DNA of 64,000 nt. It comes from an uncultured Verrucomicrobiae bacterium. Its GTDB lineage: Bacteria > Verrucomicrobiota > Verrucomicrobiia > Chthoniobacterales > JAFAMB01. The number at the start of each line of letters is the position of its first letter. Position 1 is the first letter of the stretch. The notes under the pieces were generated by a model. That model had not been told where the DNA came from. It was given only the letters and a program-made list of their open reading frames with translations, and did not search any database. Made by a program: the position numbers and the translations under genes. Where the stretch lies: assembly GCA_963762565.1 (NCBI GenBank), contig CAVXLD010000007.1:416001-480000 (forward strand). The letters run 5' to 3'. This document shows positions 39,268 through 61,043 of this stretch, one piece after another.

Positions 39268-40539
39268 ATGTTGTCCCAGACCTCTCCGGGTTCAGGTGGC
39301 AACGACGCTTTCGCGCCGGCGACGCTGCCGTCTCGTTACAGTTCAGCCACCGTTGCAGGTTACAAGATTTTGTCGCCGCTTCCGGAACCAGGGGCGCAGG
39401 CTGACGTTTATGTTGGAGAGGATAATGATAAACAACGCTACGCCGTTAAGCTCTATCGCGGCTTAACAACTCCGTCGCCGGCTACTGCTCGAGCATTGGC
39501 TGAGTTATCCAGCCGCCGGCTTTTAGTGCCCCGTTTCCAAGGTGAGTGGGAAGGAAGGGCCGTCGAAGTTACCGAGTTCTTCCCGTTGGGTAACCTGGCA
39601 GACTTTATCAAGAGGAACGGGCCGTTGGACAAAGAACAGGCGTTGCGTTTGCTCCGTCAGGTGACTGATGGACTGGAGCAACTTCATGGAGCCGGAATCC
39701 AGCACCGCGACCTCAAGCCCACAAACATTTTAGTCCGGTCAGAACGGCCGCTTGACTTAGTTCTCGCCGATTTCGGCCTGGCATCAGTTACGGATACTAC
39801 GGTGCTGACGCAGCCCCGCGGCACTCTGTTCTATTCGGCGCCGGAGACGTTAACGGGTATGTATTCAAAAGCCAGCGACTACTGGTCGCTCGGCATCGTC
39901 TTGATCGAAGCGTTAACCGGAGACTCTATCGCGGCTATACTGCGACATGATGCGCTGCTCCCGTATCGGATTGTGCAAGGCAAGGTGCCGGTTCCATCGG
40001 AGATTCCCAAAGGTTGGCGGCCGTTGTTAACCGGACTACTTGAGCGAGACCATTATCGTAGGTGGCAAGCTCGCCAGGTTCGTCTCTGGCTCGATCGTGA
40101 GAGCCAGAAGGTGGGTGTCGCTGCTGAAAAGAAGGCCAGACCGCTTCTCATCGCCTCCCTGGCCCTGGCTCTGGCATTGACAATTGGCGCTGGCCTTTGC
40201 TTTGACCCCGGCGGGCCGGTTCGCAGCGAAATTTTTGGAAATGCTTTAGGCCAAGCCGAAGATGCTAAGCCACACTCGGTTGTGCCCAATCCAATTGGCG
40301 CTTTGCCTAGGAATGGAGCAGCCGCCGCTCGATTGGAGAGTAATACGCGTTTTAGCTCGATTAATGTGTTTGCTTTGGCGGTCACAACCACGACGGCGCT
40401 GGCCTGGATTTTATCCGGGATCTTTCTGCTGATCGGGATTAGCCATGTGATCAGCGGCGCCCCGCACGGCGCCATTTCGGTTCTCCTCGGAATATCCCTC
40501 GCGGTTGGGGCGTATTTTTTGCCGAGGCTTTGGGGGTAG
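39268..40539 (+). CDS. Hanks-type Ser/Thr protein kinase with C-terminal TM segments
   Basis: AVKLY, HRDLKPTN, DFGLA, GT..YSAPE, SDYWSLG; three hydrophobic helices after the kinase domain. Confidence 0.9.
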   Translation: MLSQTSPGSGGNDAFAPATLPSRYSSATVAGYKILSPLPEPGAQADVYVGEDNDKQRYAVKLYRGLTTPSPATARALAELSSRRLLVPRFQGEWEGRAVEVTEFFPLGNLADFIKRNGPLDKEQALRLLRQVTDGLEQLHGAGIQHRDLKPTNILVRSERPLDLVLADFGLASVTDTTVLTQPRGTLFYSAPETLTGMYSKASDYWSLGIVLIEALTGDSIAAILRHDALLPYRIVQGKVPVPSEIPKGWRPLLTGLLERDHYRRWQARQVRLWLDRESQKVGVAAEKKARPLLIASLALALALTIGAGLCFDPGGPVRSEIFGNALGQAEDAKPHSVVPNPIGALPRNGAAAARLESNTRFSSINVFALAVTTTTALAWILSGIFLLIGISHVISGAPHGAISVLLGISLAVGAYFLPRLWG

Positions 40540-45567: not shown

Positions 45568-46260
45568 CTAATCCGCTGGCCTGTTCAGCGAATATTTGGT
45601 CACTCCGACCTGTTTACGGATCGCCGAAAACAGATCCTCGACTCCTTGCCGATTGGCGAAGTTGATCACGAAAGCCGGTAACCCGCCGCCGCCGTCAGTT
45701 AAAATCGTGTAGGTGGCAATGGTCCTCGTGCCGCCGTCGCACGAGTCGAGGTGCCATGACCCTTGATCGAGCGTGATCCGGATCACTCCGGGACTCGGAG
45801 TTGGTCCAACCGAGTTTATCGGTTCCCAATGGAAATGGTAACTGACAGTTCCATCTTCATGCTTTTCCGCTCGGCTGGACACAGCTACGGTCACATCACG
45901 AGCCCCGATAAACGGTGGGTCCAAACGAAAATAACCGATCACTTGATGCAGCTTGCGCTCGATGATCTGGGTTTTGGTCATATAAGGCATGAAGCTTGGG
46001 TAATCTTCCACCTCGTCGATCACGTTTCTTACCACCCAATTCGGAGCGTCGATTGAACCAACCGCTCGAATTTCTTTGATCGGACAACCTGAGCGCGAGC
46101 GAGCGAAAATTGCTAAGCCCTCATCTTTACTTACCTGTACCCAATCTGAGTTCTCCGGGCTGGCTGAGCCGCTGGAAATAAAGCTCACCAGCCCGCAAAA
46201 AAGGCAGGCGATTGAAACCGCGGCAGTTCCCCTTCGTACCTTTGACTTACGCGATAGCAT
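45568..46260 (-). CDS. START/SRPBCC lipid-binding domain protein, probably secreted
   Basis: Signal-like N-terminus; W....DEG..IF.R, YPSFMPY, PPFIGARD, GSW.L, DGGG.LPAFVINFAN. Confidence 0.8.
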   Translation of the reverse strand: MLSRKSKVRRGTAAVSIACLFCGLVSFISSGSASPENSDWVQVSKDEGLAIFARSRSGCPIKEIRAVGSIDAPNWVVRNVIDEVEDYPSFMPYMTKTQIIERKLHQVIGYFRLDPPFIGARDVTVAVSSRAEKHEDGTVSYHFHWEPINSVGPTPSPGVIRITLDQGSWHLDSCDGGTRTIATYTILTDGGGGLPAFVINFANRQGVEDLFSAIRKQVGVTKYSLNRPAD

Positions 46261-48830: not shown

Positions 48831-48902
48831 GGCGTATCGGCGTGCGGGAAAATCCGGGAACTGAGGGGAACGTCCGGCTGCTCGAGGTCGGTGAACTAAG
48901 AC

Positions 48903-49033
48903 GGATAGGACCTATACGACCTATGGGACCAATAGGACTTATGGGACCAATAGAACTTATGGGTCGAGGCGCCTGTTGCCTCAGGTGGCACCGGCGGCAT
49001 CATATAAGTCCCATAGGTCCTATAAGTTCCCAT
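48903..49033. repeat. Inverted nonamer arms (GGGAC(C/T)TAT)n ... (ATA(A/G)GTCCC)n
   Basis: Arms at about 48903-48963 and 49001-49033; same unit at 8238-8270, 9690-9720, 31473-31503 and 58236-58275. Confidence 0.85.
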
Positions 49034-49344: not shown

Positions 49345-49460
49345 AGTAAGCGGTAAGCGGTAAGCAGTAAGCGGTAAGCAGGGTGTCAGCCCAACCCGAA
49401 TTTGGCCGCAGAATCTCTGTACTGCCGACCGCTTACCGCTTACCGCTTACCGCTTACTGC
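49345..49460. repeat. Inverted heptamer arms (TAAGCGG)n ... (CCGCTTA)n
   Basis: Arms at 49345-49380 and 49428-49460. Confidence 0.85.
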
Positions 49461-49588: not shown

Positions 49589-50449
49589 ATGGCGAAAATC
49601 CCTCATCCTATCAGGCTGACAGGGTTAGTCCTATCAGCCGTCATCATTACCCTCGGCACTGCCCGGGCCCAGAAAGCTCCGGCGACCCCGGCGGGGACCC
49701 CAGACGCGAACGCGATCACGAGCAGTGGAAACCTGCCGTCGCCAACTTGGCTGTTTAAGGCAATCAGCGCAGCGTTACCCGAGTTCGATTGGAAAACAAA
49801 GGTCAAGGAGCTGACCTCAGACCCAAACTTCGAGAAATCGGATTATCCGGATGATCTCTCGAAGATCTCTAACCTAGGAGTGCGACTCGCCGTCGCCTTT
49901 GTCGCCATCATGGCGCAGGATTATGAAAGCGTGGAGAAGGCCGCCAAGGTGAGCACAGAATTGTCCTCCGACTTCAGCGTCGCCTCCGACATAAAGGCGA
50001 AAGCCGAGGAAGCCCAGGATGCGGCAAAAGCCGGCAAATGGGACGAAGTGAACGCGAAACTCGACTTGATCACACAGGATGTCTCCAAAGAATTGAAGAC
50101 GGGAAGCCATAAAGAAGAGGCAACCATGTCTTTTGCGACTGGTTGGCTGACCGGGCTCAACATTATCAGCAGCGCCGTGGCAGAAAACTATAATGAACAG
50201 GCGGCGCTATTGATCCGGCAAGGTCCGCTACCCGGAATGCTTGTGACTCAGCTGAAGGCGGTAAGCCAGAACTATAAGGCGAATAACGACGGCAAGGATC
50301 ACTCGAACTACAAAACCATTACGGATGGGGTCACAGAAATCGCCGAGGCCGTAAGGAAGGATCAATCGAAGCCATTCACTAAAGAAGAAGTAACGGCTCT
50401 CCGGGATAAGACCGGGCAGTTAATAAAGAGCATCGAGACCTTGTCCTGA
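49589..50449 (+). CDS. Secreted alpha-helical hypothetical protein
   Basis: Signal peptide ending ARA; motifs LPSP, SNLGVRLA.AFVA, ATGWLTGLNI. Confidence 0.7.
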   Translation: MAKIPHPIRLTGLVLSAVIITLGTARAQKAPATPAGTPDANAITSSGNLPSPTWLFKAISAALPEFDWKTKVKELTSDPNFEKSDYPDDLSKISNLGVRLAVAFVAIMAQDYESVEKAAKVSTELSSDFSVASDIKAKAEEAQDAAKAGKWDEVNAKLDLITQDVSKELKTGSHKEEATMSFATGWLTGLNIISSAVAENYNEQAALLIRQGPLPGMLVTQLKAVSQNYKANNDGKDHSNYKTITDGVTEIAEAVRKDQSKPFTKEEVTALRDKTGQLIKSIETLS

Positions 50450-50637
50450 CCTGCGAGTCGCCATATTCCAATTTCCCGTTCTTTAGAGCCTGGACCAGCC
50501 ACCAGTGCACGACTGGTCCGGGACGGAACTGGATTTCTTATTGTTGGCCGTCTCCTACTTGGAGCGGGCTATTTATTGAGTGGGGCGGACGAATCGAAAA
50601 TCAAGAGCGCAAGCGGCGAGCTTAAAGCCCATCAACA

Positions 50638-53600
50638 ATGAGCGGGGATCTAGCCGATATCCTTAAGACGGTCAATGAAACGCCCTTGTTTCTCAAGAAT
50701 GTACTACATCGGGATGAGCGCACCGCCAAAATCATTAAGCTTTTCGGAAGCTTATTCGCCATTAGCCGAGGTGCAGCTGATGACATTCAACAGGGGATAT
50801 CGGAGTACCTGCGCTTCAACTACCAAGAGGAAATCGCCACCGCTCTCGAAGCCGCAGTAGAACAATACCGGGATTCTCCCACCCCGTTCGAGGAAGCCCT
50901 GCAGGCTCTTAGAACTTCCTGGGATGTTGCTGCCAAGGCTTTCTTCGCGATCAAGGTTTGCGAAATTCTAAGAAAGGTAGAACCAGCTTGGGCTAGACGT
51001 CTGCGCGCCATCGGGCAGAACCTTGGCTTACCGGAATCGGTCTTGGGCTTCGTGGGGGCGGTCGTCGATCCGGGCTTTGCTGAGACCCAGCCTCCCTCGA
51101 ACCGCCCCGTTCAATTTCGCCTGGGGCCGACTGGTTCGGCGAATTGTTTCTGTGTCCGAGATCTTCCCGACTTTCTCTACATCACCTGCTGGCAAAACGA
51201 CTTTTATGTTTCGGCTGGGCGGACCGGAGCTTCATTGGACGGGAAAGCGGTGCCGCCAAGCTTCGCCTTTCGTTTCGACCTGCTAAGCGAGTTGAGGTTT
51301 GGCCGTTTCCGGCTCCTATACCGGCAATTACAACTGCTCCAACGCTGGTTTCATCAAGGAACCAATGGAGTACCGAAATTCAGCTTGAAGAAAGAAGGTC
51401 AACTCCTTCTCCGACGGCCTTCCGAAGGGTCAAAAGAGAAGACCTGCACTCTAAAGCCAACGTACCTCGCGATAACAGAAGGCGGGGGCGAACGCCGAGT
51501 GGAGTGGCAAGACCGCCTTGAAGTCGACGGGACGAGGACGCGCGCCAATGAAGTAGCCGAAGTCATTTTGGCCCTGTCGGGAGCCGGCGAAGCCAAGGGT
51601 CAAAGATCCGCCTCATCCTGTCTGCTGGAGCTGGACAATGTTGGTTGCAACTTCGGGAAGATGCGCGGCCTGCGAGAAATCTCGTGTGTCGCAGCCGGCG
51701 GTCAGATGGTTGCGGTGATGGGACCTAGCGGGTGCGGAAAATCGACGCTGCTCGGAACCATGATCGGTGCAGTGCCTCTCACTGCCGGTAACATGAAGAT
51801 GAACGGGATCGACTTGTCGCGCCTGGTAAAAGAGAATCCTCGGCTGCTCGGGTATGTACCTCAGGATAACATCACTTTCGCGACCCTTACCGTTGCCGAA
51901 AATCTTTCTTATGGTGCCCGGCTCCGCCTGAGCGAACCGACTAAATCGCGAGTCGATGATTGCGTAAACAATGTCCTTGAGGAGATCGATCTGAAGGATC
52001 GGGCGACAGTGATTGTCGGAGACGAGGATACCAAGACATTGAGTGGCGGCCAAAGGAAGAGAGTCAGTTTGGGCCTTGAGTTGCTCACGCCAAAGTCCCT
52101 TCTTTTGCTGGATGAACCGACTTCGGGTCTGTCTTCGGGGGATTCGGAACGAATTTTGCGGATCCTTCGCGCCCGAGCCGATGCCGGCGCCTTAGTGTTC
52201 GTGGTGATCCATCAACCCAGCGCGGAGCTCTTCAGGCTCTTTGATCGTTTACTACTGTTGGATCGCGGAGGTGTGGCCGCTTTCTATGGCGATCCGCTGC
52301 ATGCCCGGGCCTACCTTGAAAAAGTGGCGCCGGTTCCCAGCGCTTCTGACGCCGACGAGTTCGATCCAGGCAGCCTTTTGGCGGCGCTAGAGGCACCCGC
52401 CAGACAAGTCGACGGACGCACAGAAGAACGCCGGATGTTTGATCCGGAATATTGGAAAGCTCGCTACGACGGCTATCGGCGGAGACATTTTTCTCCGGCG
52501 CCGGGCCCCGAGCTGACTCGATCACCGGCAGATGAACCCCTGCATGGTTGGCTACTCAGGCAGATGCAGATTTTGTTTGAGCGATCGCTCAGATGCAAAC
52601 TGCGTGACCATCTTGGTCTGGGCATCTCCTTAATCACTGCGATTTTTCTAGGGCTGGTCGTCGGCAAGATTCTCAGCTCCAATCCGGTCCTGAAGATCAA
52701 CAATTTGTTCGTCTCGTTTCCATTTCTTTCTTCGATCGTCGCGCTTTTTATCGGGATGTCTTCGAGTATCACGGAAGTGCTCCGGGAACGCCCGATTTTG
52801 CGCCGGGAAAAGCTTCTAAAGGTGAATCTGACACTGTGGCTGGGATCAAAGTTTGCCACGCTGGTGCTGACCGATTTTGTTCCCATTTTTTTGTATACCG
52901 TGATCAGCATGTACCTGTTGCAAGTACCGGAGTCGCTCTGGGGTTACTTGTTCTTCCTTTGGTTAGTCTCGGCGGTCGGAGTTGCTCTCGGGTTGGCAAT
53001 TTCCAGCGTGCCGAATATCAAAGAGGCAGCAGCCACGAATGCGTTGCCGCTGATCCTGGTGCCGCAGCTGGTGCTAGCGGGGGCCGATCCTTTCAAATTC
53101 GGTGACTTACAGCCCTTAGTCTTGTTCCCGGAGCAGGTTGCCGAGGCGAAAGTCGAAGCCGCGCAAAATGATGGGATGCTGTACCTGAAATCTTACACCA
53201 ATAACGGTAAAAAAACGGAGATTCACTTTCGCAAAACCGTGCCTGAAGTGGCAGCGCTGATGCCGTCTCGATGGGCCTACGAGGGATTGATCTCCTTGTA
53301 CACGAATCATTCCCGGTGGATCGGTGCCGAGCAGGTTGAATTCATTTACCAAGCTTGGAAGAATGCAGCGACTACTGCGGAGAATAGTGTCGCGAAGTCT
53401 GAAGAAGCGAAAGACATCATCCATTCGATAACGGCTCTTCTGGGCGATATTAGCCGCCGGAGCAAGAATCTGTCGGACAAATATCAAACCCAGTTCACAG
53501 ACCAAATCTTTGGCAACGACAAGGCGTCGAAGATTTGGGATCGTCCCCATGAGACCTTGCTGGTAAGATTCAAAACGATTCCGTTCACCAGTGTGTTGAT

Positions 53601-53772
53601 GGCGACCGAATGGTACAATGCGGTGGTGCTGGCCTTGATGGCCTTCATAACCTTGCTGGTCTCCCGGATCCTGTTGAGCAGTTGGGCACAGGCGGTTGTG
53701 CCGGCCATGTTTGGGTTGGTGTCGGATCGGATTTCGCAGATCCGCAGGAAACTTTGGAGCCGCGCGAGGTGA
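50638..53772 (+). CDS. Large ABC transporter, ABCG/White topology (N-terminal accessory region - NBD - TMD)
   Basis: GPSGCGKST, GYVPQD, LSGGQRKRVS.GLEL, LDEPTSGL, IHQPS, then ABC-2-type TMD (E..RER.I..RE, PLILVPQL, PSRWAYEG). Confidence 0.9.
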   Translation: MSGDLADILKTVNETPLFLKNVLHRDERTAKIIKLFGSLFAISRGAADDIQQGISEYLRFNYQEEIATALEAAVEQYRDSPTPFEEALQALRTSWDVAAKAFFAIKVCEILRKVEPAWARRLRAIGQNLGLPESVLGFVGAVVDPGFAETQPPSNRPVQFRLGPTGSANCFCVRDLPDFLYITCWQNDFYVSAGRTGASLDGKAVPPSFAFRFDLLSELRFGRFRLLYRQLQLLQRWFHQGTNGVPKFSLKKEGQLLLRRPSEGSKEKTCTLKPTYLAITEGGGERRVEWQDRLEVDGTRTRANEVAEVILALSGAGEAKGQRSASSCLLELDNVGCNFGKMRGLREISCVAAGGQMVAVMGPSGCGKSTLLGTMIGAVPLTAGNMKMNGIDLSRLVKENPRLLGYVPQDNITFATLTVAENLSYGARLRLSEPTKSRVDDCVNNVLEEIDLKDRATVIVGDEDTKTLSGGQRKRVSLGLELLTPKSLLLLDEPTSGLSSGDSERILRILRARADAGALVFVVIHQPSAELFRLFDRLLLLDRGGVAAFYGDPLHARAYLEKVAPVPSASDADEFDPGSLLAALEAPARQVDGRTEERRMFDPEYWKARYDGYRRRHFSPAPGPELTRSPADEPLHGWLLRQMQILFERSLRCKLRDHLGLGISLITAIFLGLVVGKILSSNPVLKINNLFVSFPFLSSIVALFIGMSSSITEVLRERPILRREKLLKVNLTLWLGSKFATLVLTDFVPIFLYTVISMYLLQVPESLWGYLFFLWLVSAVGVALGLAISSVPNIKEAAATNALPLILVPQLVLAGADPFKFGDLQPLVLFPEQVAEAKVEAAQNDGMLYLKSYTNNGKKTEIHFRKTVPEVAALMPSRWAYEGLISLYTNHSRWIGAEQVEFIYQAWKNAATTAENSVAKSEEAKDIIHSITALLGDISRRSKNLSDKYQTQFTDQIFGNDKASKIWDRPHETLLVRFKTIPFTSVLMATEWYNAVVLALMAFITLLVSRILLSSWAQAVVPAMFGLVSDRISQIRRKLWSRAR

Positions 53773-53776
53773 AACC

Positions 53777-55222
53777 ATGTCCCAGCCAAGATCTTCTGGC
53801 CAAAATCCTTTTTTCCTGATTGCAGGCGATTCAACAGCGGCGGCCTTGACCGCGCTTGAGTTAGCTCGCCAAGGCATCCCCGCTAAGTTGGTCGCCGCAC
53901 CGGGTTCGGCTGGGGCTGGAATCGCTATGTCCTTTGGTATTCCGCTCGATCCTAGTTCGTTTTCCTTGTTCCTTGGGCGGGTAGGGTTAGGGGACGTAAC
54001 GCATCTGATTCTCTTTCCGACCGATCTCTGTGAGCTCGCGCTTTGGTTAGCAGCGTCCCAGGACGCGCTTGACGCAAAAAGTAAGCGAACTCCTCTAAGC
54101 GTATTCGCCGCGGCTCCAAACGCCGAAAGTCTGGCTGCGGTGCGCCGCGGCGTCGTGGTGATCGAGCCTCAGCCAAGTTTCTTTGTTCAGTTCTTTTCCA
54201 CAGACGAGGACGTAGCCCGTGACTTCGTATTTCAATATTTTGGCAACAGGGCCAGGGTTTCGGATGGAGCTGACGGGTTCTTGATCGTTGGTTCCAACTC
54301 GTTAGCCGAAGCGATCGCGCTCAAGATCGCCAAGCTAGGTGGATTGCTCGATGGTTCCAAACCCAAGCTCGACTGGATCGTTGCCCGGGACATGGCGAAG
54401 AGAGTCGATCTTCGCTATCCGGCACTAAAAGAAATCTGTATTCTGAATTTCCACTCGCCCGAAGACGAGCCTCTCGCGATGATCGAGTCGTTTGCTGACT
54501 TGACTCGCGCACTGATCTTAACCGAAGGATCAAGAGGTCTGGAGGAGTGTTCCACCATTGGTCAACGAGGAGTGCTCAAGCATTTCAGTGGAACCTATGT
54601 TCCGCACAGCCGGTCTGACCGGCTGAATAGAATATTTCACAAACATTTCTCCTGGGGCGCCAATGCGGGTCATGTGCGTTTCTTTGGGGATTATTCAGCC
54701 ATTGCGTCCCAGGCCCGGTTCGTAGAAACGGGGCGATTTCGGTTACCTCGCTCTATCCATGAGCGTTATTGTGAGGCGCGGATGGCAGAGGGAGAATTAC
54801 CCGTCGATAATCCGAGTCTAAAGCCCTGGCACGCGATCGATGAAGACCTGCGTCAATCGAACCGGGAACGAGCGGATCATGTGATCTATGTGCTCGGGCG
54901 TTTAGGCTATGTGGTCGAAGAAGCCGGTCGCAACAGTTCCTCTTCACCTATTTCCATCAATAAAGATGTTCTAGAACAGCTGGCTCGGCTGGAACATATG
55001 CGTTGGACGGCCGAGCGTCGATTGGCTTGGTGGTCCTTTGGAGCGATCCGAGACAATGCCTTGCGCCGGCATCCATTGCTTATCCCTTACGAGGCGCTCG
55101 ATGAAGACGAGAAAGAAAAGGATCGACAGACCATGCGTGACATCCCCGAGGTCCTGCGGCGAGCAGGCTTGGTGGCGAGATCCGGAGACCAGACAGGAAT
55201 GCCGCCGCCATTACCGAATTGA
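53777..55222 (+). CDS. RyR-domain protein with N-terminal Rossmann/RCK-like regions
   Basis: IHERY...PW..IDEDLRQSNRERADH and LARLEHMRW.AER...W.FG..RD...RRHPLLIPYEAL.E.EKEKD; LIAGD and LIVGS Rossmann-like strands. Confidence 0.8.
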   Translation: MSQPRSSGQNPFFLIAGDSTAAALTALELARQGIPAKLVAAPGSAGAGIAMSFGIPLDPSSFSLFLGRVGLGDVTHLILFPTDLCELALWLAASQDALDAKSKRTPLSVFAAAPNAESLAAVRRGVVVIEPQPSFFVQFFSTDEDVARDFVFQYFGNRARVSDGADGFLIVGSNSLAEAIALKIAKLGGLLDGSKPKLDWIVARDMAKRVDLRYPALKEICILNFHSPEDEPLAMIESFADLTRALILTEGSRGLEECSTIGQRGVLKHFSGTYVPHSRSDRLNRIFHKHFSWGANAGHVRFFGDYSAIASQARFVETGRFRLPRSIHERYCEARMAEGELPVDNPSLKPWHAIDEDLRQSNRERADHVIYVLGRLGYVVEEAGRNSSSSPISINKDVLEQLARLEHMRWTAERRLAWWSFGAIRDNALRRHPLLIPYEALDEDEKEKDRQTMRDIPEVLRRAGLVARSGDQTGMPPPLPN

Positions 55223-55244: not shown

Positions 55245-55715
55245 ATGAGACGTTATCAAATTATTCTGACGTTTGCGCTGTTGGCCCTGTTAGTAACTGC
55301 TCGCGCCGACGACAAGCTCGGGCCACCGCCCTGGACCAAGGATCATGCGGACGGCGGTGATCAGCGGCCGCCTCCCTGGATGCAGGATGACCCGGGCGGC
55401 AACAAATTTGGGGTTGATCCCATGCAGCTTTTGCAATCCAAGGACATCAAAGAACAATTGAAATTGACCGACGACCAGTCCCGGCAGTTGGCCAGTCTGG
55501 CCACTCGGTACCAGCAGGAAATCAAGAAAGAGCTCGGGAACATGGATATGAGCAAACTGACCGGCGACGAACGGACTAAGAAAGAGGCGGAGCTCAGGGA
55601 AACCTTGACTAACCTGATGGAGTCAGAACGCCAAGAAGTAGAAAAGATTTTGAACGCCGATCAGTTGGACGCCTTCAAGCGCATCATGCTCAAAGTCAAT
55701 GGAGCGGAGGCGTAG
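55245..55715 (+). CDS. Secreted Spy/CpxP-like (LTxxQ) helical protein
   Basis: Signal peptide; LKLTDDQ and ILNADQ motifs. Confidence 0.65.
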   Translation: MRRYQIILTFALLALLVTARADDKLGPPPWTKDHADGGDQRPPPWMQDDPGGNKFGVDPMQLLQSKDIKEQLKLTDDQSRQLASLATRYQQEIKKELGNMDMSKLTGDERTKKEAELRETLTNLMESERQEVEKILNADQLDAFKRIMLKVNGAEA

Positions 55716-55724
55716 GGATAAAAT

Positions 55725-55990
55725 GGTGGGGCGAGGCTCCGGAATTATCCAGCCGTATTCGCAGGGTTATGGTTGGTTCCAACGATCCCGTTTGCAAGTC
55801 CAAATCATCCGCCGAGCCGGGCCCAGCGTTATGCATGCTGGTCAAGCGGTTATTATCGTCGATACGTCTTTGAGCCTTGGCGTGTCTTGGGCCAACGTCT
55901 CGGCAGCTTATTGGCCCATCACAATTAGGGGAAACAATCCGTTCCCGTCGCTGGAAATGTCTCTGGGTTATTCGGGAGCCTCGCCCCACC
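55725..55990. repeat. REP/REPIN-like element, family A
   Basis: GGTGGGGCGAGGCTCCGGAAT ... ATTCGGGAGCCTCGCCCCACC. Confidence 0.85.
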
Positions 55991-56005
55991 AAATTTGAAT
56001 TTTCT

Positions 56006-57091
56006 ATGTCATCATTCCGTTACTCATCTTTAGTCATTATTTGCGCCGCCTGCTCGGTCTCGCCGCTATACGCCGCAGACGACACCAATACGCCACCAAA
56101 ACCGGCGGAAACCGCGGCTGAGATCACCTCCAAGGTCTCTTTGGTGCATCTCGGCAGCATTGATACCTTCACCATTACCGAACAAGGAACCTTAGCCGGC
56201 CGGTTTTTGTTAAGCGCTCTGAACAGCAAAGACCTGAGCTATGCGAGGAAGGCCAAGGAAATCTATGAAACCATCATTCCGAAGGAACACTATGGGGGAG
56301 AATACACCGCTTTGGAGTGGTTCTGTGATTACTTGCTTGGGAACGAAGACAGTCGTAAACAGCAGCTGGCAGACCGTTATCACAAGAGCTTTTTCGAATT
56401 CTTCAGCGCTAACGATTTCGCCACTCTGAAAGAATATCTGACCCGCAAATACAAGCTAAAGAAGTTGGCCGACTCGGGTACCGAAGCCGGAAGGGATAGG
56501 ATCGCTTTTCTCGAGGACTTCATTCTTTTCAACAATCCGCGGCGCGAAGAATGGGAAAAAACGAGTAAGATCATCGAGGCTCTCAAAATTCAGCCGGGAA
56601 CCACAATCGCCGATGTGGGTTGCGGGCCAGGTTACTACACCTTCAAATTTTCCGAGTTAGTGGGGCCAGGCGGTAAGGTCTTGGGCATCGATACGGTCCA
56701 GGAACATCTAAACTACATCAAGGGCCTTTGTACAAAGTTCGGCATAAAGAATATCGAGACAATCAAGGACCGTGAGGATTCCGCCGGTATCCCCGCGAAC
56801 AGCGTGGACATGATCTTCATGTGCTCGTTGTATCACATTATCTACACGACTTTGATCGAGGAAGTAAAAGACCGCTTTATAGACAGTTTGAAAGCGGCAC
56901 TGAAGCCGGATGGACGGCTCGTGATTGTAGACAACGCGGTTGTGACCCAGGGAACGCTGCCCTATCACGGACCACACATCGCGAAGGAATTAATTATTGG
57001 GCAGCTCTATTACTACGGCTTCGATCTAACGGAACAATATCAGTTTATCCCGCAGCGCTATGTCCTGGTGTTCAAAAAGCGAACCGAATAG
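56006..57091 (+). CDS. Class I SAM-dependent methyltransferase with N-terminal signal peptide and helical domain
   Basis: IADVGCGPGYYT motif I, VLGID, VDMIF, LKPDGRLVIVD; N-terminus SSLVIICAACSVSPLYA-ADD. Confidence 0.85.
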   Translation: MSSFRYSSLVIICAACSVSPLYAADDTNTPPKPAETAAEITSKVSLVHLGSIDTFTITEQGTLAGRFLLSALNSKDLSYARKAKEIYETIIPKEHYGGEYTALEWFCDYLLGNEDSRKQQLADRYHKSFFEFFSANDFATLKEYLTRKYKLKKLADSGTEAGRDRIAFLEDFILFNNPRREEWEKTSKIIEALKIQPGTTIADVGCGPGYYTFKFSELVGPGGKVLGIDTVQEHLNYIKGLCTKFGIKNIETIKDREDSAGIPANSVDMIFMCSLYHIIYTTLIEEVKDRFIDSLKAALKPDGRLVIVDNAVVTQGTLPYHGPHIAKELIIGQLYYYGFDLTEQYQFIPQRYVLVFKKRTE

Positions 57092-57106
57092 CAAATAGCA
57101 GATAGT

Positions 57107-57321
57107 GGTCGGGCGAGGCTCCCGAAAGACCCTTCTGTGTCACCGGAGACATTCGGCAAATAACTTTCCGAACAAATGTATTACGTCTACAGACGCGCCG
57201 AGCCGGGGTCACGCGCCGGGATTGCGGCTCGGCGCGCGCTCAGGTGTAACCGGGTTTTCAGTCAGCCCAAACTGAATCGCTGTGCGGAAACCAGTCCGCC
57301 ATTCGGGAGCCTCGCCCTACC
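57107..57321. repeat. REP/REPIN-like element, family A
   Basis: GGTCGGGCGAGGCTCCCGAA ... TTCGGGAGCCTCGCCCTACC with inner CGCGCCGAGCCG..CGGCTCGGCGCG. Confidence 0.85.
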
Positions 57322-57333
57322 TCCTTCTGCCCC

Positions 57334-58218
57334 TTGACCTCCCACCTCATCGGCATCCTGGCCGCCCTCGGTTCCGCCGCCTCTTGGGCGGTTGGCACCC
57401 TACTATTTAAAGGCATCGGCGAGGAGTTCTCGCCGATGGCGATGACGTTCATCAAAAGCTTTTTAGGCGTTTTGCTATTGGCGGGAGCGATTCTGCTGGT
57501 CGGTTGGGAATCAGTAAGGTCTTTGCCGCTCGGTTGGCTTGCACTCAGCGGGCTGCTCGGTATCTCTCTCGGGGATACTTTCTTCTTCGCAGCGCTGCGC
57601 CGTTTGCCCGCGCACCAATTGGTTATTCTTATGCTGCTGGCGCCGGCAGTCACGTTGTTCCTGGCCTTGTGCTTCCTGGGAGAACGGCCGGCGCTCGTGA
57701 GCTGGGTCGGAATCATCCTCGTTCTCGGTGGGGTTAGTCTGACTTTTAAGGACAAGATAGAGGTCGATCAGGAAGCGCGGCAGCGGGGGCTGGGATTGCT
57801 TTTCGGCGTCCTCTCGGTCCTGTCGATGGCGGGCTCGATCATCATAGCCAAAATCGGCCTTCAAGACGTTTCTGCCATGGAAGGAACGTTTCTCCGGCTG
57901 TTCTTCGGATTTGTCGGGATGCTGGTTGTCGGGCTGGCCCGAAGGGAGCTGAGGAACTGGTTGGTTCCGTTGCGTCAGGCCGGGTTGCGTTGGCGTTTTC
58001 TGTTAGCGGTGGTCGTCGTGACGTTCGGGGGCTTCTGGCTCTCTCTCGATGCCATTAAGCGACTGGATGTTTCGATCGCAAATACCCTGCTTGCCACTGA
58101 ACCAGTCTTTGCATTGCCGCTGGCGGTGATTTGGCTGCGCGAACATGCTACCGGCGCTGCGGTTGTTGGAGCGATCGTCGCATTATGCGGCGCCGGTATC
58201 CTGGCTTTCAGTGGCTAG
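57334..58218 (+). CDS. DMT/EamA family transporter
   Basis: About 10 TM helices in two repeats; SGLLGISLGDTFFF, TLLATEPVF.LPL. Confidence 0.88.
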   Translation: MTSHLIGILAALGSAASWAVGTLLFKGIGEEFSPMAMTFIKSFLGVLLLAGAILLVGWESVRSLPLGWLALSGLLGISLGDTFFFAALRRLPAHQLVILMLLAPAVTLFLALCFLGERPALVSWVGIILVLGGVSLTFKDKIEVDQEARQRGLGLLFGVLSVLSMAGSIIIAKIGLQDVSAMEGTFLRLFFGFVGMLVVGLARRELRNWLVPLRQAGLRWRFLLAVVVVTFGGFWLSLDAIKRLDVSIANTLLATEPVFALPLAVIWLREHATGAAVVGAIVALCGAGILAFSG

Positions 58219-58468
58219 CGCTCTATGAGACACCTGGGACTTATGGCCAGCATATAAGTCCCATAGGTCATATAGAGCCCGTCGCGCCGTAGGCTTGGCG
58301 AAGGCGGATTCCCATCCGTTCCCCGCCCATCGCGCCGCTTTCCCTCTACCCGCCCAACGCCGATACGCTCACACGCCCAGAATCCCGGCTTGACCTCGGT
58401 TCCAGAAACGAATGAAATGGCGCTGAAAGAAATTCTGCAAGTATCGCCAATTTCGGCATCTAATCCTT

Positions 58469-59953
58469 ATGAATATCGTCGGACAATCTCCGAACATATC
58501 TGACGCGTTGATGGATCGTGCGCTCAGTAGAGTCGCTGACTTCAATCGATTCCGAGAGGAAGGTCTAGTCTGTCGAAGCGGCGACTTTTTTCCCTCAGTC
58601 CACTATCCGCCGATCACGATGTACCATGAAGTGGACGAAAATAGGCTGTTCGAGGATTATTCATTGCCGGCCGATGGGAAATTGGACGTGTACGCGCACA
58701 TTCCGTTCTGCAAGCAGCGCTGCATCTTTTGTCATTACCCGGTGATGCTCGGCAAAAAGGAGGCGGAGATGGATCAGTATCTGGGCGCCATGGAAAAAGA
58801 AATGGATATTTACATGCGCCGGTTGGGCGTTGATCACATCAAGGTCCGATCCATTCTCATCGGCGGTGGGACTCCTTCCTACCTTAGCCCGGTGCAATTG
58901 AAACGGTTTCTGGATTTCTTCACTAAGCGTCTCGATATGTCGGAGTGCGATCAATTTAACTGGGACGTTGATCCTTCGACCCTGGTTGGTCCGATCGGCT
59001 TGGAACGGCTCAAGATCCTGCGAGATTATGGTTCAGACCGGATGACCCTCGGAATCCAATCGTTGGATGAGCGCGTCCTGGAGATCATGAACCGGCCGCA
59101 TGACAAATCGGTCGCGCTGGAAGCGATTCGGAACTGCCAAGAACACGGCTATCAGGTCAACATTGAATTCATTTTTGGTCACCCAGGGGAGACGCTGGAG
59201 AATTGGGTGGACGTTATGCGAGAGGCGGTAACACTGGGTACTGAGGAGATACAACTTTACCGGCTGAAGGTGGAAGCCTACGGCGATTATCAGGGCCCGA
59301 TTAAAAACTATCTTAATAAACGTCCGGATGAAGCAGTTCCGCACGAAGAGCAGATCATGATGAAGCAGCTCGCGATCGATATCCTGGCTGAGAACGGATA
59401 TCATGAGAATCTGCGGCGAGTTTATACTAAGGAGCGGCAACATTTCTCCTGTTACGCAGAGAACCAGTGCTGCAAACTTTATGATGAGGTCGGTTTTGGG
59501 TTGACCGCGTTCAGCAGCTTACGGGATCGCTTTGTCCTGAACAGTGAGACCTTTGGTGAGTACTACCAACATATTGAAGAAGGCAGAATGCCGCTCAACC
59601 GCGGTCTGAAGCGTGACAAAGATCAACAATTGCGCTGGGCCATTGTGTTACCGATGAAGAATCGGGACGTCTATAAGAGCACGTTCGAGGCCGCCACAAA
59701 CGGAGAATCTATCGAAAACGTCTTTCGGCCAAAGATCGAGCGGCTCAAAGCGTATGGCTTGTTGCGGGAAGACGACGTTAGTCTCGGGCTAACCCAACTA
59801 GGGGCATTTTTTGCCGACGAAGTCGCCCAACAATTCCATTCTGACGATTACATCCCGTATCCGCGCGAGGCCTACGCTGACGGTCCTCTCAATCCTTATC
59901 TGGATACGGATCCTTACGCGGCGACAGGTGCGGCAACCTCAGCAGTTTCTTAA
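58469..59953 (+). CDS. HemN-like (class C-type) radical SAM protein
   Basis: YAHIPFCKQRCIFC, GGGTPS, TLGIQS, IFGHPGET, VGFG.TAFS, LTQLG.FFADEV. Confidence 0.88.
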   Translation: MNIVGQSPNISDALMDRALSRVADFNRFREEGLVCRSGDFFPSVHYPPITMYHEVDENRLFEDYSLPADGKLDVYAHIPFCKQRCIFCHYPVMLGKKEAEMDQYLGAMEKEMDIYMRRLGVDHIKVRSILIGGGTPSYLSPVQLKRFLDFFTKRLDMSECDQFNWDVDPSTLVGPIGLERLKILRDYGSDRMTLGIQSLDERVLEIMNRPHDKSVALEAIRNCQEHGYQVNIEFIFGHPGETLENWVDVMREAVTLGTEEIQLYRLKVEAYGDYQGPIKNYLNKRPDEAVPHEEQIMMKQLAIDILAENGYHENLRRVYTKERQHFSCYAENQCCKLYDEVGFGLTAFSSLRDRFVLNSETFGEYYQHIEEGRMPLNRGLKRDKDQQLRWAIVLPMKNRDVYKSTFEAATNGESIENVFRPKIERLKAYGLLREDDVSLGLTQLGAFFADEVAQQFHSDDYIPYPREAYADGPLNPYLDTDPYAATGAATSAVS

Positions 59954-59981
59954 ATATATCTTGGAGCACGAATCAACGGCG

Positions 59982-61043
59982 ATGTTTAACGACACGGTAG
60001 CGTTTGCTGGGCAGTCTGGAAACGGTCGTCAATACGTAGATGGTTTGGAACTAAGCGATCCCGATCTATTTTGGGATCGAGATGCTATTCTTCGTTGGCT
60101 ACAGGTTAGGGGATCTGAGCAAGAGCAGCTTTTTGCTGCGGCTCGATCTGCCCGGGAAAAGGTCTATGGCCGCCGGGTGGTCGTTCGGGGTTTAATTGAG
60201 GTCACAAATCTCTGTCGAGTGAACTGCCAATTCTGCCCGATGCGGCGAGATAACACGAAACAAAACACGATTTTCCAGCTAACCCCTGAGCAGATACTAG
60301 AGGTAGTGACCGAAATTAAGGCGGCCGGCATTAACGTGGTTTTTTTCCAGGCCGGTGAGGTGGGCAAAACCACTCGTTTGATAGGCGACGTGATACCCGA
60401 GATCCAGGCACGATTTGGCAATCCGGTTGAGCTTTTGCTTTGTCTTGGTAACAAGACAGATACCGAATTCGAATTTCTGAAAAAGCAGGGAGCCACCAGT
60501 TACATCCTGAAGCACGAGACCAGCGACCCGGATCTGAATGAACGGATGCGGGAGTCGTCGTTCGAAGAAAGAATGCGCTGTTTGCGGACGTTAGTTGGAT
60601 TGGGGTTCAAGGTGGGAACCGGAGCGATTGTTGGATTGCCCGGCCAGTCAATCGAGAGTCTCGCTAACGATCTGGAACTTGCCCGAGACCTTGGCGCGCA
60701 CATGGTCAGCGGCTCTCCGTTTATCCCAGCGCCGGATACCCCGTTGGCTGGTTATCCGGCCGGTGATGTCGAGCTGACTCTGAATTTTATTGCGATTGCC
60801 CGGCTCATGAATCCTTCCTGGCTGATACCCAGTGTCAGTGCTTTGGAGCGTCGGCAGGGCGGAGGCCAGCTTAGCGGGCTCGCCGCCGGGGCTAACGTCT
60901 TGACCGTCAATTTCACACCCCCAGTCGAGCAGGAAAAATATCTGATTTATGGTAAGGATCGGTACGTGGTTCGAAACGACCATGTGACCGAGATCGTTCG
61001 TCAAGCTGGGCTGGAACGCGCGCAGTCAGTGTTCGCAGCCTGA
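59982..61043 (+). CDS. BioB/HydE/PylB-like radical SAM protein
   Basis: RGLIEVTNLCRVNCQFC, YILKHET, VGTGAIVGLPGQ, PFIPAPDTPL, AGANV, YLIY. Confidence 0.88.
   Translation: MFNDTVAFAGQSGNGRQYVDGLELSDPDLFWDRDAILRWLQVRGSEQEQLFAAARSAREKVYGRRVVVRGLIEVTNLCRVNCQFCPMRRDNTKQNTIFQLTPEQILEVVTEIKAAGINVVFFQAGEVGKTTRLIGDVIPEIQARFGNPVELLLCLGNKTDTEFEFLKKQGATSYILKHETSDPDLNERMRESSFEERMRCLRTLVGLGFKVGTGAIVGLPGQSIESLANDLELARDLGAHMVSGSPFIPAPDTPLAGYPAGDVELTLNFIAIARLMNPSWLIPSVSALERRQGGGQLSGLAAGANVLTVNFTPPVEQEKYLIYGKDRYVVRNDHVTEIVRQAGLERAQSVFAA

Follow-up and report, generated by a model that had tools for sequence, protein, structure and literature searches.

An ABCG-order transporter and an exported helical protein form a conserved pair with a local, soluble RCK-RyR add-on in a Verrucomicrobiae genome

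Results

Three intact genes make up the locus

The window analyzed in this study is a stretch of 64,000 nucleotides from an uncultured Verrucomicrobiae bacterium (assembly GCA_963762565.1, contig CAVXLD010000007.1, positions 416,001 to 480,000). It contains three real and intact genes: a conserved pair, which encodes an exported helical protein (gene 1) and an ABCG-order half transporter (gene 2), and a local add-on, which encodes a soluble RCK-RCK-RyR protein (gene 3). The unit that recurs across phyla consists of genes 1 and 2 alone; a gene 3 next to the transporter was encountered in just two genera. The open reading frames are (positions refer to the window):

49589..50449, + strand: gene 1 (P0001), 286 amino acids
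50638..53772, + strand: gene 2 (P0002), 1044 amino acids
53777..55222, + strand: gene 3 (P0003), 481 amino acids

Genes 1 and 2 are separated by 188 base pairs (bp) and genes 2 and 3 by 4 bp, so that these coordinates agree with the initial annotation, which had described three co-oriented genes with the last two 4 bp apart. For gene 1, the start at 49589 was preferred over 49562 because close homologues are often 286-287 amino acids long. Compared with locus L001, all three genes are under purifying selection (third-position differences 0.28-0.41, second-position differences 0.02-0.08). The same-strand run goes on 22 bp past gene 3 with five further genes that the initial annotation leaves unmentioned, and scans for promoters and terminators gave counts at chance level (4 versus 5.1 and 15 versus 11.9, respectively). 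In line with the initial annotation, which knew of no system of this composition, no description of the trio was found in the open literature searched.

Gene 2 encodes an ABCG-order half transporter with a TerB-FHA head

Gene 2 has the layout TerB-FHA-NBD-TMD (NBD, nucleotide-binding domain; TMD, transmembrane domain), with the following features:

50686..51087, + strand: TerB-fold helical domain, residues about 17-150, from head model and fold search
51103..51336, + strand: FHA-fold domain, residues about 156-233, from head model and fold search
51625..52302, + strand: NBD with Walker A, Q-loop, signature, Walker B and H-loop all intact
52558..53649, + strand: TMD, from Pfam and hydrophobic segments; topology taken from the ABCG architecture
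about 53095-53592, + strand: insert of ~165 amino acids before the last helix, put on the periplasmic side by analogy with the ABCG architecture

The Walker A motif (GPSGCGKS) starts at residue 362 and is followed by the Q-loop at Q409, the LSGGQ signature at 468, Walker B at D492/E493 and the H-loop at H525; Pfam places ABC_tran (346-496) before ABC2_membrane (641-815), i.e. the NBD precedes the TMD. Both the intact motifs ahead of the TMD and their ABCG-type order had been noted before and agree with these positions. Five hydrophobic segments lie above the threshold, and a sixth transmembrane segment, which we place near residues 800-818, would leave an insert of ~165 amino acids ahead of the last helix, matching the large insertion that had been reported in this domain. 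The eukaryotic ABCG/White half transporters (TIGR00955) share the domain order and were the best NCBIfam match (E-value 3.7e-70), but the score of 237.2 bits lies below the cut-off of 736.35, and gene 2 further differs from them by a 330-residue, putatively regulatory head and a likely bacterial periplasmic partner.

The head was modeled with a mean predicted local distance difference test score (pLDDT) of 74.7, residues 243-275 and 312-327 scoring below 50. TerB-type chains topped the structural matches (2ou3 with Z 8.8, root mean square deviation (rmsd) 4.8 and 126 aligned residues; 2h5n with Z 8.2, rmsd 3.2 and 110 aligned residues), and FHA-type chains matched residues 156-233 with Z 8.1 to 5.8, the best being 3oun (Z 8.1, rmsd 2.2, 70 aligned). 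The Z scores are middling, but the matches are mutually consistent and in line with the sequence evidence, which suggests a TerB and an FHA fold in the head and bears out the helical domain and degenerate FHA-like fold proposed initially. Pfam TerB did not match P0002 itself. When the FHA region was read from the sequence, the phosphothreonine-binding motif of FHA domains (Gly-Arg / Ser-x-x-His / Asn-Gly) was not found in gene 2: Gly163 is followed by Pro, in orthologues by Ala, and neither Ser-x-x-His nor Asn-Gly is present. According to PMC3138270, FHA domains bind phosphothreonine via Arg and Ser.

The closest described system is Rv1747 of M. tuberculosis (FHA-FHA-NBD-TMD), which shares the NBD-before-TMD order and an FHA fold in the head (gene 2 head against 6cah, Z 7.4; against 6ccd, Z 6.2) and which makes control by a soluble protein a candidate shared property: according to PMC5549992, Rv1747 is regulated via its FHA domain by soluble Rv2623 and affects glycolipid levels. 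Unlike Rv1747, gene 2 has a TerB fold where the first FHA domain stands, an FHA domain lacking the phosphothreonine motif, a large insert before the last helix, an exported partner and no adjacent kinase gene.

In a protein search, some 40 sequences were closely related to gene 2 (45-100% identity); beyond these came a broad family with 31-39% identity, many members of which carry Pfam TerB and some GAF, with named members from Bacteroidota, Kapabacteria, Ignavibacteriales, Delongbacteria, Desulfovibrio and Verrucomicrobia. The orthologous heads, combined into a profile, matched the N-terminal start of distant family members (best E-value 1.3e-12 among 82). The genome itself carries a longer housekeeping TerB-ABCG member (C10:146190-149759) and a classical FHA-FHA-ABCG gene (C10:22478-24763), which is an outgroup when 44 NBD-linker segments are arranged in a maximum-likelihood tree. 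In this tree the window transporter clade falls inside the TerB-ABCG family (support 99/98) and outside the housekeeping clade of the genome (100/100), on a long stem (1.61) whose branch point within the family the tree does not fix. Genes 1 and 2 probably represent an additional copy of the conserved pair, one that evolves fast.

Gene 1 encodes an exported all-helical protein

The product of gene 1 begins with a Sec-type signal peptide (about residues 1-27) that has no lipobox cysteine, and its model is all-helical with a pLDDT of 87.6. The fold search that had been suggested for this protein left the confident model without a fold match: Foldseek returned nothing at E <= 0.001, and the best VIA structural match (Z 9.1 over 86 residues) covers a four-helix part. 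Neither Pfam nor NCBIfam families matched; in the comparison with known periplasmic lipid carriers, a weak sequence match to a chain labelled LolA (E-value 0.0092) received no support from fold comparison, and an Atlas search matched only unnamed Verrucomicrobiota clusters. The family comprises 229 representatives at E <= 0.001. Three further paralogues are present in the genome, in groups conserved across the order, and a FastTree phylogeny places gene 1 outside all three of these housekeeping groups. Homologues from Bacteroidota-like loci start with a lipobox-like cysteine. Gene 1 is likely to encode a periplasmic partner of the transporter; of the two roles that the initial annotation had left open, partner or substrate, the signal peptide and the lipobox-like cysteine in homologues speak against the latter.

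Two of the paralogue groups have characteristic neighbors. One (G000:C13:105714-106613, locus L083; also L012, L024, L028, L148 and L149) is divergent from a family-2 glycosyltransferase gene, occurs in several families and is the sole copy in genus g12. Another, together with a small partner (G000:C9:9438-10680, locus L085; also L011, L019 and L025), is flanked by PhoH on one side and by genes resembling heptose kinase, GmhB and KdsB on the other.

Gene 3 encodes a soluble RCK-RCK-RyR protein with a conserved RyR pocket

Gene 3 has the layout RCK-RCK-RyR(short)-RyR. PF02026 matches two stretches (65.2 bits versus a cut-off of 27.4), no hydrophobic segment was detected in P0003, and the two RyR-type repeats behind RCK-like segments and the absence of channel helices are therefore as first described. 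Gene 3 also matches the structures of RyR1-3 and of a Bacteroides RyR protein. It aligns end to end, at 20-24% identity, with membrane proteins composed of helices, TrkA_N, a second Rossmann domain and RyR, minus their membrane part; ten of ten membrane-type relatives in alignment A3 have one or two hydrophobic segments. P0003 itself has no Pfam TrkA_N match, and the RCK assignment follows from a paralogue that passes the TrkA_N cut-off (24.9 versus 23.8) and from the alignment with TrkA_N-bearing relatives. The pore-less RCK-RyR forms make up one clade (support 0.976); from this single clade in a midpoint-rooted tree we infer that gene 3 would be a pore-less derivative of membrane RCK-RCK-RyR proteins.

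The GxGxxG loops, the nucleotide-binding loops of RCK domains, are degenerate in both domains (G-D-S-T-A-A at 17 and G-S-N-S-L-A at 172), the second and third glycines being replaced. The RyR pocket is retained:

54995..55123, + strand: predicted nucleotide pocket formed by H407, W410, R425, H432, K448 and D449, from the alignment with phage RyR Tad

All six ligand positions of RyR Tad are aligned (H129, W132, K147, H154, K170 and D171 with H407, W410, R425, H432, K448 and D449), five of them identical and K147 replaced by R425, and the pocket residues are kept in 42-44 of 44 alignment rows (Lys counted as kept at 425). Their spacing equals that of H75/W78/H100/D117 in RyDEP, a mapping made by equal spacing only. 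Two 2026 preprints (PMC13232231; 10.64898/2026.06.04.730250) report that RyR domains from phages can bind cyclic ADP-ribose isomers or cleave them; in the former, six of the eight RyDEP homologues, which have similar residues, bound ligand and only the founder cleaved. Since the GxGxxG motifs are lost, nucleotide sensing, which the initial annotation had assigned to the RyR/RCK protein as a whole, is, judged from the sequence, more likely a property of the RyR pocket than of the RCK domains.

Phage RyDEP and RyR Tad and the ryanodine receptor Repeat12 thus share the PF02026 module, ligand residues and spacing with gene 3 (both preprints), whereas gene 3 differs from RyDEP and Tad in being host-encoded, fused to two RCK domains and located beside a transporter instead of in a phage anti-defence locus. 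Gene 3 has the soluble two-RCK layout of TrkA, the regulator of TrkH (compare PMC6987127), and the membrane TrkA_N-RyR proteins are alignable over its whole length; gene 3 is unlike RCK systems in having no membrane segment, degenerate GxGxxG loops and no adjacent Trk/Ktr channel gene.

Several RyR genes were observed elsewhere. Two g150 genomes carry a second pore-less RCK-RCK-RyR paralogue (L062:9265-10701 and L064:9263-10696), in L064 with a DUF4062-TPR gene about 2 kb upstream. In L066 (G327:C1:40300-60200) a membrane TrkA_N-RyR gene lies between a TPR-S/cyclase gene and SIR2-like/TIR and nSTAND1 genes, a candidate signalling or defence operon. In L077:1788-4697, RyR stands in a fusion with NUDIX, RelA/SpoT and a weakly matching SLOG domain, and in L073:7514-10192 with TPR-S and a cyclase.

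Genes 1 and 2 are linked across phyla, gene 3 within one family

Among 301 genomes drawn once from the phylum, the gene 1 family profile and the head of the housekeeping transporter matched the same 31 genomes. Genes 1 and 2 are adjacent in all nine own-family genomes that have gene 1. A metagenome scan returned mostly generic ABC proteins; among the five loci examined out of 80, three contain members of the transporter family. In two of these (L169 and L170, both Bacteroidota-like) a helical gene lies next to the transporter or one gene away, is matched by the gene 1 profile (E-values 1.7e-9 and 1.4e-12) and is accompanied by a small secreted protein, which the Verrucomicrobiota small-partner profile did not match; SiaC and DUF6272 adjoin the L170 pair. 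The third contig begins within the transporter and runs on into a SpoIIE phosphatase. A SiaC search of the genome gave no match, control profiles being equally silent. For one further pair of gene 1 and transporter clusters, three contigs of equal size (28243, 6641 and 4957) indirectly suggest a shared contig; the size match of P0014/P0253 (11399) may be due to chance, and 18 of 20 gene 1 relatives checked had no match. A scan of genome contigs yielded two close loci, duplicates of two genomes already counted and hence not counted apart.

Of the 43 genomes in the own family, the same 10 were matched by the head of the transporter and by the RCK part of gene 3, and gene 1 matched nine of these ten, the contig of the tenth beginning inside the transporter. 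Gene 3 lies directly downstream of the transporter in all ten, which belong to genera g1 and g150, and the gene order is kept in every genome having the trio. In G396 (own genus, 89% complete) unrelated genes occupy the site. The flanking genes range wider than the trio (START gene in 29/43 and HemN-like gene in 14/43 family genomes). An order-wide search found RyR matches in 39 of 251 genomes; those other than gene 3 were mostly fusions, and none of these other RyR loci that were viewed has the family transporter or helical gene beside it. The proposed three-gene module therefore holds as a block that moves together within the family, but only genes 1 and 2 are linked across phyla; likewise, a neighborhood check of the homologues recovered the pair beyond the phylum but, among the loci examined, no RyR neighbor outside the two genera.

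Discussion

We tentatively read the locus, at somewhat less than an even chance, as an exporter acting at the envelope, together with a partner in the periplasm and an accessory protein that would bind a nucleotide and regulate the pump. The base of this mechanism would be the intact ATPase motifs, the NBD-before-TMD order and the folds modeled in the head of gene 2, which, as in ABCG biology, would dimerise and extrude its cargo from the inner membrane. By this analogy gene 2 is quite probably an exporter. From ABCG biology, from Rv1747 and, weakly, from the glycosyltransferase and heptose/3-deoxy-D-manno-octulosonic acid (Kdo) genes beside the housekeeping paralogues, a lipid or glycolipid as cargo has close to an even chance. 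Given the cross-phylum linkage and its location, gene 1 would dock on the periplasmic insert and take over the cargo; that it is a functional partner of gene 2 is very probable, and that it binds gene 2 directly is somewhat probable. Gene 3 would bind an adenine or ADP-ribose nucleotide in its RyR pocket, which the residues kept there make quite probable, and would act on the transporter head from the cytoplasm, as soluble RCK proteins do on their transporters; this step, drawn by analogy, is the least supported and appears doubtful. A more specific version, in which NAD-derived signals of the cyclic ADP-ribose type from the TIR proteins of the genome switch ABCG envelope export through a re-wired pore-less RCK-RyR sensor, the pump having a periplasmic partner with a new fold, is improbable.

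Several observations weigh against this reading. The 31-genome match is clade-structured (23/23 genomes in one family, 1/1 in another and six of the order's eight others); the co-occurrence of the pair therefore goes back to few events, and the housekeeping copies of gene 1 and the transporter are not adjacent in those genomes. In Parabacteroides the transporter is followed by a 276-amino-acid lipoprotein whose match to the gene 1 family is not significant (E-value 0.21) and which a second profile comparison did not match; the small secreted third partner present at other loci was not found at the window locus. An RyR neighbor was absent from the three family-member metagenome loci, the Parabacteroides locus and the housekeeping copy of the genome, and the linkage of gene 3 rests on a single insertion in the ancestor of two genera. 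The second pore-less RyR paralogue in L062 and L064 sits away from the transporter, and because the pocket residues occur throughout PF02026, they give no hint of a function at this locus.

Some of these points equally fit gene 3 as a passenger working alone, most likely as a host protein that soaks up or hydrolyses ADP-ribose signals made by TIR proteins, in the manner of RyDEP or RyR Tad, a reading that we consider unlikely but serious. H407/D449 match the catalytic pair H75/D117 of RyDEP, the genome has ten TIR_2 matches over the cut-off, a free-standing paralogue exists in two genomes, no RyR neighbor was seen outside the two genera, and membrane relatives can lie among TIR/SIR2 and STAND genes (L066). 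Gene 3 nevertheless keeps 315 residues of RCK scaffold at ~50% identity between genera, which is beyond the needs of a sponge, is spaced by 4 bp and 16 bp from the transporter and has a range identical to it, and cleavage was not observed for most of the tested RyDEP homologues that have similar residues (PMC13232231). The same TIR matches and L066 relatives, together with the binding of Thoeris signals by RyR domains (PMC13232231 and 10.64898/2026.06.04.730250), would suit an effector arm of a Thoeris-like anti-phage system, in which gene 3 reads a TIR signal and the transporter damages or remodels the envelope. This is very unlikely: Thoeris has a TIR gene in its operon, yet none of the ten TIR matches lies on the contig of the window (C7), the locus is stable across two genera, and a text search of a systematic Thoeris preprint found no mention of ABC, transporter, RCK or TrkA.

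Two further alternatives concern the pair. The eight same-strand genes could be one biosynthetic cluster in which the pair exports the product of radical-SAM (S-adenosylmethionine) enzymes and a methyltransferase; the eight-gene order is shared by both genera, the gap after gene 3 is only 22 bp, G396 is devoid of both the trio and the five downstream genes, and the Bradyrhizobium plasmid version of this cassette comes with an ABC exporter, albeit of another type. We regard it as quite unlikely: in genus g151 the cassette is present (5/5 loci) while each of the trio genes is missing (0/19 genomes), the cassette brings an EamA exporter of its own, and the pair is found elsewhere without the cassette. 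Gene 1 could also be a secreted substrate in a type I secretion-like arrangement, being exported and encoded beside the transporter. Type I secretion ATPases, however, do not have the NBD-TMD order, no gene for a membrane-fusion or outer-membrane channel protein is present in the locus, and the Sec-type signal peptide and the lipobox-like cysteine make this the least credible alternative, with hardly any probability.

With regard to significance, Rv1747 is the main source of knowledge on bacterial exporters of ABCG order. The gene 2 family, which spans several phyla, extends this picture by a TerB head and by an exported partner without a fold match; the literature searched contained no description of this family, nor of a pore-less RyR protein beside the pair. 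The binding or cleavage of cyclic ADP-ribose isomers by RyR domains is described by the 2026 preprints only and for phage proteins only. As a soluble host protein of 481 amino acids with its RyR pocket residues kept, gene 3 offers an easy test for cellular RyR ligands and for signal control of a transporter. If the proposed regulation is true, gene 3 would provide the first case of a host-encoded receptor with an RyR pocket that is coupled to a transporter.

Flanking genes

The trio is flanked by the following features:

55245..61043, + strand: five-gene cassette coding for LTXXQ-like protein, SAM methyltransferase, EamA, HemN-like and HydE-like radical SAM proteins, from Pfam and neighborhoods
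45568-46260: START/SRPBCC-like exported protein, upstream of gene 1

The radical-SAM genes downstream form a mobile cassette of their own (window 55245-61043; L101-L105; L108). Its order is kept in genera g1 and g150, and it recurs, rearranged, on conjugative Bradyrhizobium plasmids (four records; 57% identity of the HemN-like enzyme); the one plasmid inspected (L108, NZ_CP094524) has an FtsX/HlyD ABC exporter and glycosyltransferases alongside. The methyltransferase has a long N-terminal part and an apparent signal peptide, and the LTXXQ-like protein is exported. The HemN-like radical SAM protein scores under every NCBIfam cut-off and the HydE-like protein reaches 223 bits versus a cut-off of 254.6.

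The START gene, which is divergent from gene 1 in genus g150, was considered as support for a lipid carrier and dropped owing to its family-wide presence. The nearest kinase gene (39268-40539) lies seven genes from the trio and was not seen at the orthologous g150 loci. Short repeats were observed upstream of gene 1 at 48900-49030 and 49345-49460, consisting of TAGGAC/TATGGGAC-like runs and a GCGGTAA / TTACCGC inverted array.

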